Shown piece by piece: positions 50,490 through 53,131 of a stretch of DNA of 64,000 nucleotides. Source of the DNA: Patescibacteria group bacterium UBA6017 (GTDB lineage: Bacteria; Patescibacteriota; Saccharimonadia; UBA4664). Each line of letters begins with the position of its first letter. The first letter of the stretch is position 1. The position numbers and the translations under genes are program-made. Under the pieces are notes generated by a model. That model had not been told where the DNA came from. It searched no databases and saw only the letters and a program-made list of their open reading frames with translations. The stretch lies in NCBI GenBank assembly GCA_002429485.1, contig DIZX01000015.1:21363-85362 (forward strand). Direction: 5' to 3'.

Positions 50490-50741
50490 TCATATATAAG
50501 TCGGTTCCTCAAACACCGTCTCCCCCACGGCGTTAATCATCGAGTACCCCACACTCGCACTCTTCGCCCACTGCGGAATCAGCCTCCATTTCATCATCTC
50601 CAGCCCGTCAGAAGTCTCCACCGGCGCATACTGCGACGGCGCAACGTTGTAATTAGGACCACGATAACCATCCAACTCAAGCTGAGAATAGTAATCCATG
50701 ATCACTTTTCCATCTACAACTAAGGTAAATCTTCCGCACAC
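50490..50741 (-). pseudogene. SRAP/YedK-family (abasic-site DNA-protein crosslink, MCGRF) gene, N-terminal 83-aa fragment only
   Basis: Begins MCGRFTLV with the catalytic Cys2, RLIPQWAK, AETVFEEPTY. Terminates after about one third of normal length, exactly where visibly AT-rich foreign DNA begins. Confidence 0.6.
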
Positions 50742-50760
50742 GCTTTCGATCCTAAATTAA

Positions 50761-51903
50761 CTAGACTTCTTCAGGTGTTTCTTTTACGACGCGCTCTTGG
50801 GTTTTTGATTTATAGCTCCAACCTGCGCCTAATTCGGCAAAGATTGCCTCATTAATTAATTTTTGATTTATCGGCTTCAAAAATAAATCGCGGTGAAAAT
50901 TGAACCGGCTCAAAATCGTAATAGTATTTTCAGATATTTCAACGTTATACATTCCCATCAAAGCTCCCAGAGAATTATTAGACAGTCTCACACGCTTAAT
51001 AATTCTATTCCATGCAAGGTTATCTTGAATTTGAGGAGCTGCACTTGCTAATGCAGCTTTAGAATTCTTGCGGTTTAGCAATCTGATGGAGGCGTGAAGA
51101 GTAGCAAGGTAGAAATAAAACATCCAGTTCAGCCATATGTCTTGGTCGTATTCACGCAGCTGTTTTTGGTCGTAATGCCTTATCGCAAACTTATTGGCGA
51201 TTGTGAAAATTGCATCTTCGTCCTTGCTATTTAATACCTTCGCGACATCACCCTTTATGCTTTCGAACGCATCAGCCAAATCGTGTACAGCATCTCGTTT
51301 GTCGCTTACAGATGATCGTTGCTGGCGAAATTTCCGTATCGCACGCTCGGCAATTTCATTTACATCGCCAGTTTTATATTTAGGTAATGAGCTAACAAAT
51401 AATTGCGTGAACCCTTTATCTCCAAGAGCTAATATTTCGCCTTGTTCATCAAGCGTATAACCATCCTCATAGCCACCAAGTATTTCATTAATATCCTCAC
51501 GATAGCTCTTTCGACCCTCATCAACATCAAATTCATAATAATGCATGCCACAATCATTATCCGAATCAAAACTACCTTTAGTAGGTTTTGATACATGGTC
51601 ATACAGAAACTCGATCATATCGAAAATGTCATCTTCAGAGTATTTTTCGTAGTGTTCTTCTATCGGCCATATCGCCCTTTTTCTCAGCTTACGAAATATG
51701 TATTGAGCAATCTCTCCACCAACTAGACCGTTGATTTGCCCGCCACCGCTTATACATTCAAATCCGAAGTTCTGGTCAAAGAACGATTTTGCATTTAGCT
51801 CCCGATAAACAATCAAGAAAAGTTCGGCAAGCATTGTAAAGTTATAGCCATTAGCGTCTGGGTTAGTTCCTGTTCGAGATGAATAGTATCGTCTAGTTGG
51901 CAT
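50761..51903 (-). CDS. AT-rich foreign hypothetical protein (380 aa), candidate abortive-infection/defence gene
   Basis: Visibly lower GC and AAA/AAT/TTA-rich codons versus flanking host genes. Cytoplasmic, no TM. Lies between the truncated SRAP gene and the duplicated tmRNA 3' end. Confidence 0.45.
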   Translation of the reverse strand: MPTRRYYSSRTGTNPDANGYNFTMLAELFLIVYRELNAKSFFDQNFGFECISGGGQINGLVGGEIAQYIFRKLRKRAIWPIEEHYEKYSEDDIFDMIEFLYDHVSKPTKGSFDSDNDCGMHYYEFDVDEGRKSYREDINEILGGYEDGYTLDEQGEILALGDKGFTQLFVSSLPKYKTGDVNEIAERAIRKFRQQRSSVSDKRDAVHDLADAFESIKGDVAKVLNSKDEDAIFTIANKFAIRHYDQKQLREYDQDIWLNWMFYFYLATLHASIRLLNRKNSKAALASAAPQIQDNLAWNRIIKRVRLSNNSLGALMGMYNVEISENTITILSRFNFHRDLFLKPINQKLINEAIFAELGAGWSYKSKTQERVVKETPEEV

Positions 51904-51926
51904 AATTAGATATTTTACTCCATAAA

Positions 51927-51949
51927 AACAAAAAAGGCCCCGGAGGGCC
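51927..51949 (-). terminator. Intrinsic terminator (GGCCC-cgga-GGGCC + T-run) within repeat copy 1
   Basis: 5-bp GC stem, 4-nt loop, followed on the minus strand by TTTTTTGTTTTT. Confidence 0.5.
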
Positions 51950-52028
51950 TTAATTATTGCATTGGTGGAGCTGCGGAGAATCGCACCCCGGTCCGTCAGG
52001 TTACTCGCTAGTGCACTACAGGCTTAGT
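51927..52028 (-). repeat. Direct repeat copy 1: duplicated tmRNA 3' end (66 nt) plus downstream terminator hairpin
   Basis: Near-identical to 52717..52819. Differences are confined to the terminator loop (CGGA vs TCTC) and one T-arm position (AGAA vs GGGA). Confidence 0.85.
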
Positions 52029-52077
52029 TTAGTTGTTTCGTCGTAACCATAACTACGATTATTATAGTTGTCAGTGA

Positions 52078-52188
52078 TTATGAATTGGTTTCTGCTGAGG
52101 GGACAAACGTTCGCTCGCCACACTTAGGGCACACATTTGGACCAGGATGCATTGTATATTCTACTTTGCAGCTAGAACACGGCTTCAT
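52078..52188 (-). CDS. 36-aa zinc-ribbon protein (MKPCSSCKVEYTMHPGPNVCPKCGERTFVPSAETNS), not in ORF track
   Basis: ATG preceded by GGAGG SD (aagcGGAGGaatatatATG). CxxC...CxxC spacing. Begins 20 nt after the stop of the 166-aa membrane protein on the same strand. Confidence 0.45.
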   Translation of the reverse strand: MKPCSSCKVEYTMHPGPNVCPKCGERTFVPSAETNS

Positions 52189-52207
52189 ATATATTCCTCC
52201 GCTTAAC

Positions 52208-52705
52208 TTAATGAACCGTAATAATCCTAAGGTCAAAGAGTACGGCAATCACCAAAATAAAGTATGCGAATAAGGCGAGAAATAGAAAAATTACTTGAAG
52301 TCTGAGCCATACAACAGATGACTGCTGCTTAAGTGAACTAAGTATTTCATTTACCCTGGACACTGCAATAACGACATCAGTATCCTTTGCTTTGCCCAGA
52401 AGATTAACAACATCGTTATATCCTTTAGCCCAATCAATATGAAAGCTAATGAGGTCGAAATAGTTCTTGATGCCTGAGCCAATAGAGACTATGAGAAGGC
52501 TAAACCCAACAACAATTAGCACCTTCTGGTTTGCTGCCATGGATTGAAGGCGAGCAAAATCTGAATAGACGACAAGGTTTGCTGAAATGAGAACAGATGT
52601 GATCAGCATGAGCTGGCCACATAGAGCTCTTTCGCTTGCATTCAACTCAGCAAGTGAGATATTCCTCGAGTCGACATATTGGTCGCGCTGTTTTAACCTG
52701 TCCAT
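52208..52705 (-). CDS. AT-rich 166-aa membrane protein (3 TM), island cargo
   Basis: Start at the Met after the tmRNA terminator. Hydrophobic segments LMLITSVLISANLVVY, VLIVVGFSLLIVSIG, VIFLFLALFAYFILVIAVLF. AT-rich codon usage. Not in the ORF track as such: the track entry 52208..52777 is a 189-aa ORF whose N-extension overlaps the tmRNA 3' end. Confidence 0.5.
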   Translation of the reverse strand: MDRLKQRDQYVDSRNISLAELNASERALCGQLMLITSVLISANLVVYSDFARLQSMAANQKVLIVVGFSLLIVSIGSGIKNYFDLISFHIDWAKGYNDVVNLLGKAKDTDVVIAVSRVNEILSSLKQQSSVVWLRLQVIFLFLALFAYFILVIAVLFDLRIITVH

Positions 52706-52716
52706 ACTGTAAGTAT

Positions 52717-52819
52717 AACAAAAAAGGCCCTCTCGGGCCTTAATTATTGCATTGGTGGAGCTGCGGGGGAATCGCACCCCGGTCCGTCAGGTTACTCGCT
52801 AGTGCACTACAGGCTTAGT
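52717..52819 (-). repeat. Direct repeat copy 2 (the copy contiguous with the tmRNA body)
   Basis: Same roughly 103 bp as 51927..52028. Includes the tmRNA 3' 66 nt and the terminator hairpin GGCCC-tctc-GGGCC. Confidence 0.85.
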
Positions 52820-53131
52820 CTGCTTACATGTCTTAGCCCATCACCTGTGAGCAAACCAAACGGTGACGAGAGCATCCTCAGATCTTAGCTTAGGGGCAGA
52901 GGCCCAACCCTAAGAGCGTCCCGATGATTTGATACCGACGAACCCCTACCGGGAATCAGGTGTCGATAGCTTACGTTATTAGGCGTAAGCGGGTGCGAAT
53001 GAAGGTACCGTAAAGGCAGCCTTCACCCGCGAAATGAAGTTGGCAGTTAAGCTAACTAATGGAATCTAACGTTTGCCTCCGACCTGCGCACATAGCTTGT
53101 AAAAGTCCCAACGTCGAGCCTGATCAGCCCC
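52753..53131 (-). ncRNA. ssrA: tmRNA (ssrA), 379 nt with encoded CCA
   Basis: 5' GGGGCTGATCAGGCTCGACGTTGGGAC and 3' GGACCGGGGTGCGATTCCCCCGCAGCTCCACCA form a tRNA-Ala-like acceptor with a G3-U70 wobble. Internal tag ORF ends ...TTCGCACCCGCTTACGCC TAA TAA inside a hairpin (GCTTACG...CGTAAGC). Confidence 0.85.

Follow-up and report, generated by a model that had tools for sequence, protein, structure and literature searches.

A 64,000-nt window (the whole stretch of DNA analysed: contig DIZX01000015.1, positions 21,363 to 85,362, of Patescibacteria group bacterium UBA6017) carries on its minus strand an AT-rich gene (50761..51903; 380 aa plus stop), located, as a preliminary description of this DNA had it, between a truncated gene for an SRAP protein and a duplicated 3′ end of the transfer-messenger RNA (tmRNA) gene, ssrA. 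The product is a stand-alone protein related to AbiJ-NTD4 and to the PADLOC candidate PDC-S32, and consists, from the N-terminus, of an alpha+beta domain (aa 1–175; 51379..51903, minus strand), a four-helix domain that is the putative effector (aa 176–283; 51055..51378, minus strand) and an extension with a match to NCBIfam DnaX models, resembling the C-terminal domain of DnaX (tau) and including a ~15-aa tail end (aa 284–380; 50764..51054, minus strand). Translation begins at the first ATG: residues 4–11 (RRYYSSRTG) line up with the conserved N-terminal end of family proteins, in which Y6, S8 and R10 are near-invariant; the public annotation of an identical protein (P0001) begins at M24 and gives 357 aa.

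The gene has a GC content of 0.395 and a third-codon-position GC (GC3) of 0.36, compared with a window mean GC of 0.549 and GC3 values of 0.61–0.70 in five flanking host genes, and the sliding GC profile falls to 0.39–0.42 over ~50600–52600; the gene is thus part of a low-GC patch of ~2.3 kb downstream of ssrA. Composition, together with the distribution of relatives, excludes a host core gene; the gene is foreign and horizontally acquired, as had been proposed from its codon usage.

The preliminary description could place the protein in no known family. Its core (aa 4–276) is matched along its full length by phrog_20667 (profile positions 3–272 of 274, E 4e-60), a PHROG that lacks the C-terminal extension and has no assigned function, and further assignments can be made to AbiJ_NTD4 and to the neighbourhood of PDC-S32 (below). 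A word-indexed search found 170 homologues, nearly all of 275–295 aa, covering the query from residue 1 to ~283 at 40–48% identity. Searching 1.84 billion cluster representatives (clusters at 50% identity) with a profile returned 2010 at E≤1e-3 and 624 at E≤1e-30, and at least 318 loci in one-genome-per-species contigs encode a relative. About 16 of the 150 best representatives have N-terminal extensions of 60–260 aa, with no Pfam match.

Bacterial hosts of relatives include Chloroflexota, Cyanobacteria, Firmicutes, Acidobacteriota, Proteobacteria, Bacteroidota, Actinomycetota and Parcubacteria of the candidate phyla radiation (CPR), and archaeal hosts Methanoculleus and Methanothrix, a patchy spread that takes in almost every bacterial phylum and some archaea, at these 40–48% identities only. 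The archaeal members (L059, Methanoculleus sediminis; L065 and L084, Methanothrix/Methanosaeta) show 43–45% identity, and the GC of the L065 and L084 genes is 18–19 points lower than that of the sequence around them, a sign of transfer between domains. Forty-five plasmids, 29 of them from Streptomyces, carry a family gene, always annotated as ‘hypothetical protein’. Viral copies are restricted to four loci in IMG/VR, with no match among cultured-phage genomes. The compositional signature of the query gene recurs through the family, 62 of 74 loci showing a lower GC in the family gene than in its surroundings, with a mean difference of -8.4 points. No neighbouring gene family is present at more than seven of 80 loci and some copies stand alone between housekeeping genes. 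Patchy spread, low GC and the absence of a conserved partner thus identify the family as a mobile single-gene unit, in line with the single-gene cargo originally envisaged. Of the patchy, ssrA-adjacent distribution that had been expected, the patchiness held but the adjacency did not: among 60 loci checked a tmRNA gene was found in none, and a tRNA gene within 2.5 kb in only ~4. Adjacency to ssrA is peculiar to the copy studied here and is not a trait of the family.

In the query, aa 27–167 match the Pfam model AbiJ_NTD4 (PF18863) at E 5e-4, below the gathering score; the model matches 90 of 114 family members (best E 8e-9) and is a precomputed assignment for 18 of 120 listed homologues. The N-terminal half of the family is thus an AbiJ_NTD4 domain of divergent sequence. 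AlphaFold models residues 1–290 with confidence (pLDDT mostly >90, and >90 for the N-terminal domain), with the alpha+beta domain followed by four helices. Thirteen residues are invariant across the family (C50, G59, D95, E98, H121, G155, L209, E214, D228, H243, Q248, Y252 and W257) and near-invariant positions include H113, C118, N139, R242 and H270. All 13 invariant residues are kept in the query, which, with the confident model for aa 1–290, makes it likely that the protein is intact. A conserved motif, ANKFAIRHYDQKQ (family consensus ANNFGIRHHNxxQK), lies in the loop ahead of the last helix, with R242 at 51178–51180 and H243 at 51175–51177.

C50, H113, C118 and H121 look like a structural zinc site; residue 113 is D in the query, where 112 of the 114 members have H. 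P0247, a relative of 356 aa that also bears a C-terminal tail, lacks C50 and the entire H113...C118...H121 hairpin; joint loss of the four residues fits a dispensable structural zinc site in an AbiJ_NTD4-like domain. A hydrophobic helix (WMFYFYLATIH) raised the alternative of a tail-anchored membrane protein, which was ruled out: the helix packs within the confidently modelled bundle, and soluble domains follow it in several members.

The most unusual feature of the gene, overlooked in the preliminary description, is the DnaX-C-terminus-like domain of ~97 aa, which has no counterpart in nearly all relatives; only six of the 150 best representatives carry C-terminal extensions. The query matches the NCBIfam DnaX model PRK14950 at E 5e-5 as a whole protein and at 1.5e-5 with the extension alone. 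Two further tails, of P0247 and P0230, match Pfam DnaX_C (PF20964) at ~1e-3 and six (best 5.6e-9) and five (best 6.8e-7) NCBIfam DnaX models, respectively, and matches to DnaX models always cover the last ~75 residues; none of these scores reaches the curated cut-offs, which apply to whole proteins, as is to be expected when only one domain is present. Searched against the PDB, a profile built from the three tails had domain I of DnaA as its top match (4tps_B; full length, E 0.045), and a word-indexed search with the 102-aa tail alone found no homologue. The tail has sequence matches to the DnaX/tau C-terminal domain, and the topology predicted for it, in a model of low confidence, corresponds; it differs from DnaX in lacking the AAA+ clamp-loader part. 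Taken together, the profile matches show homology of the tail to the C-terminal domain of DnaX. E. coli tau binds the alpha subunit of DNA polymerase III (Pol III) through domain V (PMC1888804, PMC1888800), and by extrapolation from E. coli tau, the one case in which such binding is known, the tail may bind alpha as well.

The extension is even more AT-rich (GC 0.374) than the core, making capture from the host's own dnaX unlikely, and no separate DnaX_C-like open reading frame (orf) was found beside family genes in 80 loci, making a recent fusion with a neighbouring gene through stop-codon loss unlikely too. The tail therefore appears to be an established fusion rather than a recent capture from the host. 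BLASTP alignments of the query and P0247 run through into the tail, while the nearest relative of P0230 has none; the fusion is therefore present in several lineages and not just one. In all three proteins with the tail, RH[Y/R/L]D replaces the RHHN of the family, so that the changes at residues 244 and 245 of the query look like a subfamily signature and not decay. Different domains occupy the same C-terminal position elsewhere, namely a DnaG CHC2 zinc ribbon in P0129 (E 2e-25) and a PcrA/UvrD Tudor domain in P0192 (E 1e-8).

A PADLOC comparison, proposed in the preliminary description, returned the single-gene candidate PDC-S32. Its model PDLC04995 is matched by all 114 members (best E 1e-16), but the match of the query is partial (model 84–221 of 301; query aa 77–218; E 6e-12) and weak for its size, and the two are best described, on these profile alignments, as sister families and not the same family. 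PDC-S32 was not mentioned by name in any paper found. The family also recalls AbiJ (Lactococcus Abi-859) and SadR (S. aureus), likewise stand-alone, single-gene proteins of ~280 aa on mobile DNA, from which it differs in lacking Abi_C (PF14355) and the Rx4-6H motif and, in the query copy, by the added DnaX_C-like tail.

Genes of defence type recur next to family members. In the Methylobacterium indicum plasmid pVL1_5 (L095, 4222-5819) an Abi_C gene, for an ‘abortive infection family protein’, ends 6 nt before the family gene, which is followed by BrnT/BrnA, and in Paenibacillus polymyxa (L008, 6165-8840) an Abi_C gene lies 1 kb upstream; the two Abi_C neighbours belong to the same subfamily in spite of their unrelated hosts. 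Such proximity could mean that the two genes work as a pair, or no more than that they share a defence island. The family gene of a Leptospira plasmid has an MNT/HepT pair and a ParB gene at its flanks. The 148 immediate neighbours also include a few DNA methylases, type I S subunits, AbiEii, UvrD/GajB-like helicases and EVE proteins. The copies beside type I restriction-modification or methylase genes agree with how PDC candidates were discovered. These contexts are suggestive of defence.

At the locus itself, the gene had been assigned to an integrase-less island at the tmRNA integration hotspot. The intact tmRNA gene (ssrA; 52753..53131, minus strand) is accompanied by a 103-nt duplicate (51927–52028 versus 52717–52819, 94% match), of which the proximal copy comprises the ssrA 3′ end and terminator (52717–52819), and the distal copy, with a 1-nt deletion, is a displaced pseudo-copy of the tmRNA 3′ end (66 nt) and terminator hairpin (51934–51951; whole copy 51927..52028, minus strand) that lies 23 nt upstream of the ATG of the 380-aa gene. 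A search for a third tmRNA 3′ copy bounding an older island found none, leaving two copies only. The segment between them is a low-GC mini-module of ~0.7 kb (52029..52716, minus strand; GC 0.41) encoding a multi-pass membrane protein of 165 aa (52208–52705, minus strand) and a 36-aa zinc-ribbon orf (CxxC...CxxC; 52078–52188, minus strand) with a GGAGG Shine-Dalgarno sequence. The mini-module (52029–52716) has neither an integrase nor a PADLOC match and resembles what would be left of a miniature element that targeted ssrA.

The 380-aa gene begins 23 nt after the distal terminator and therefore lies outside the repeat-bounded segment (52029–52716), which holds the mini-module alone. Of the island proposed earlier, nearness to an ssrA duplicate thus stands, but the segment bounded by ssrA 3′-end direct repeats contains the other small module and not this gene. 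The ssrA locus has no integrase gene, as had been observed, and no gene up to 10 kb away in either direction has an integrase or recombinase Pfam match on record. The truncated SRAP (YedK-like) gene, which retains the N-terminal 83 aa (50490..50741, minus strand; Pfam SRAP E 1.7e-16, model 1–90 of 214) and lies 20 nt downstream of the 380-aa gene, marks where the foreign patch stops on its distal side; between its stop and the point where the next host gene begins lie only ~50 nt, and the remainder of SRAP has therefore been deleted. The neighbouring 293-aa hydrolase, used in a metagenome scan for an empty site, yielded no relative.

The ATG follows the terminator T-run by 23 nt (51903–51926), the sole GGAG is 15 nt upstream, a poor spacing, and a TAAAAT box ends 8 nt ahead of the ATG. 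A leaderless mRNA is possible, as is one produced by read-through.

Other observations at this locus concern the terminators, the SRAP fragment and the tmRNA. The two terminator copies (51934–51951 and 52724–52741) have identical stems (AAGGCCC/GGGCCTT) and wholly different 4-nt loops (TCCG and GAGA), and differences between the two 103-nt repeats mostly fall in these loops. GC (0.50) and GC3 (0.58) of the SRAP fragment are between the values of the island and those of the host. The tmRNA (52753–53131) specifies an unusually long tag peptide, ANFISRVKAAFTVPSFAPAYA. The host belongs to an uncultured lineage whose proteins form tiny clusters, and its genome is absent from the 80 best loci that the scan of species-representative genomes returned.

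The reading that we somewhat favour, at a little better than even probability, is that the gene is a horizontally acquired, single-gene defence candidate of the abortive-infection (Abi) type, with an N-terminal sensor or regulator, a helical effector and a tau-like tail for docking at the replisome. The gene is acquired cargo lying directly behind the original ssrA terminator, one of a very large family of stand-alone proteins of ~280 aa that pass among bacteria, archaea and plasmids as single genes. The product would act as a one-protein defence candidate of AbiJ-like build, in which the AbiJ_NTD4-like domain, with its conserved Cys/His cluster (probably structural zinc) and acidic EDDxFDxxE patch, may serve as sensor or regulator. 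For the N-terminal domains of AbiJ proteins, a role as sensors joined to a toxin domain has been put forward (PMC3710099). The helical domain with its invariant R-H...Q...Y...W would then be the effector, HEPN-like in layout but not demonstrably HEPN. The DnaX/tau-like addition may dock the protein at the replisome or at replication intermediates, where it could sense the replication of invading DNA or deliver the effector, and the DnaG zinc ribbon and PcrA/UvrD Tudor domain at the same place in other members would fit a swappable ‘docking’ module. Docking of this kind would parallel the escape mutants of phages against Lactococcus AbiJ, AbiA and AbiK, which map to single-stranded DNA (ssDNA)-annealing proteins and, for AbiJ, to recombination proteins as well (PMC13064643).

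Several observations weigh against this proposal. A role in defence is, for every member, what we infer from homology and context, and PDC-S32 is itself a ‘guilt-by-embedding’ candidate, PDC systems being candidates on account of their embedding in restriction-modification (RM), BREX or DISARM loci (bioRxiv 10.1101/2024.01.29.577857). The immediate neighbours in other genomes are for the most part ordinary genes, and the neighbour counts have no background control. None of the 114 members matches Abi_C (PF14355, E≤0.1) or another HEPN Pfam model, and hhalign of alignments A1 and A3 against a 38-sequence Abi_C alignment gives a probability of <1%. Foldseek comparison of the full model, a further check put forward in the preliminary description, gave nothing significant in the PDB or BFVD, with generic helical-bundle noise and no enzymatic fold. 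The tail model (topology alpha-alpha-beta-beta-alpha-beta) is of low confidence (pLDDT 64), and its Foldseek search gave no significant match, with 2e0g (DnaA-N) and 5fku_E and 2aya (E. coli tau domain V) among the structures listed, at E 0.7–2.5. The query deviates at near-invariant positions (H113D, R207H and H244Y). Expression is unproven, since the gene has no good Shine-Dalgarno sequence and starts 23 nt after a terminator.

The Abi-type assignment made in the preliminary description is thus upheld as far as homology to AbiJ_NTD4 and PDC-S32 goes, with defence as the probable role, but classification of the family as canonical AbiJ/HEPN is not supported by the profile comparisons. A true HEPN RNase of AbiJ type, with a cryptic fold and a catalytic dyad drifted to R-H...Q, killing infected cells by RNA cleavage, nevertheless has points in its favour. 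AbiJ-NTD4 was defined as the N-terminal domain of AbiJ-family HEPN proteins and originally described as fused to AbiJ HEPN domains (PMC3710099), and AbiJ/Abi_C proteins share the build seen here, an ‘AbiJ-NTD’ domain followed by a helical C-terminal domain of ~110 aa; Lactococcus AbiJ, of similar size (282 aa), is itself recognised as HEPN only weakly by HHpred (PMC13064643). The conserved Arg/His falls in the loop before the last of four helices, the position of Rx4-6H in HEPN domains, in a similar local context (‘NFGIRH’ in the family, ‘LNPIRN’ in Abi_C). Failure to detect HEPN by sequence also carries little weight: a PDB profile search with the helical domain found nothing, but the genuine Abi_C profile used as a control likewise missed HEPN structures, so that this search is powerless for HEPN. 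On the other hand, besides the absence of Abi_C and HEPN model matches and the hhalign result, Rx4-6H is conserved nowhere in the alignment, confirming its earlier reported absence from the sequence: R242 is directly followed by H243, and the residue six past the Arg is an invariant Gln (Q248) and not His. No HEPN structure is present among the 50 listed of 134 Foldseek PDB matches, none of these being significant, and a recent survey found NTD4 on only three of 2815 Abi_C proteins (PMC13590631). We regard a HEPN RNase as quite unlikely.

A non-immune role as a mobile-element accessory in replication, repair or maintenance, such as an addiction module, an anti-defence factor or a replisome modulator, is unlikely but agrees with several features of the family: each of its add-on domains derives from a protein of replication or repair (DnaX_C, DnaG zinc ribbon, UvrD Tudor), it occurs on plasmids (29 of the 45 in Streptomyces), many chromosomal copies sit among ordinary genes, and no enzymatic toxin fold was found. 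Such a role is at odds with the lack of conserved linkage to replication, partition or transfer genes, the association of both the N-terminal domain family and PDC-S32 with defence, the repeated adjacency to Abi_C, HepT/MNT, BrnTA or RM genes, and the rarity in viruses (the four IMG/VR loci and none in cultured phages). Decay into non-functional cargo, left by an island that had lost its integrase and distal end, would account for the missing integrase, the truncated SRAP gene, the degenerate tmRNA 3′ copy, the three substituted near-invariant positions and the poor translation signals; it is made very improbable by an intact 1143-nt reading frame, retention of 13 of 13 invariant residues, deviations (H244 and N245 to D) that are common to P0247 and P0230 as a subfamily signature, and the recovery of an identical protein from several independent metagenome assemblies. 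A bolder version of the immune reading, which we judge distinctly improbable, would have the family as a new single-protein module with an effector that is neither HEPN nor a known toxin fold and with add-ons that plug into the replisome or RNA polymerase, the query protein detecting phage takeover of Pol III or poisoning replication by competing with tau for alpha.

For the source genome, the gene is ordinary accessory cargo and would not surprise a specialist in defence systems. The family is already present in databases, as a PHROG, through a Pfam domain family and by a PADLOC relative, and the gene is therefore not categorically new. At ~2000 clusters, the core family ranks among the larger uncharacterised families of stand-alone proteins that have links to defence-type domains, and databases know it only under ‘hypothetical’, under phrog_20667 or through a remote match to the PDC-S32 candidate. 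What is new is the architecture of a DnaX_C-like tail on an AbiJ_NTD4 core and the recognition that AbiJ_NTD4 is found mostly with a conserved, non-Abi_C helical R-H...Q domain and not with its namesake HEPN domain. Rare members, the query included, have gained domains borrowed from tau, primase or UvrD. Both points yield testable hypotheses on the site of action of these proteins, which may be the machines of replication or transcription.

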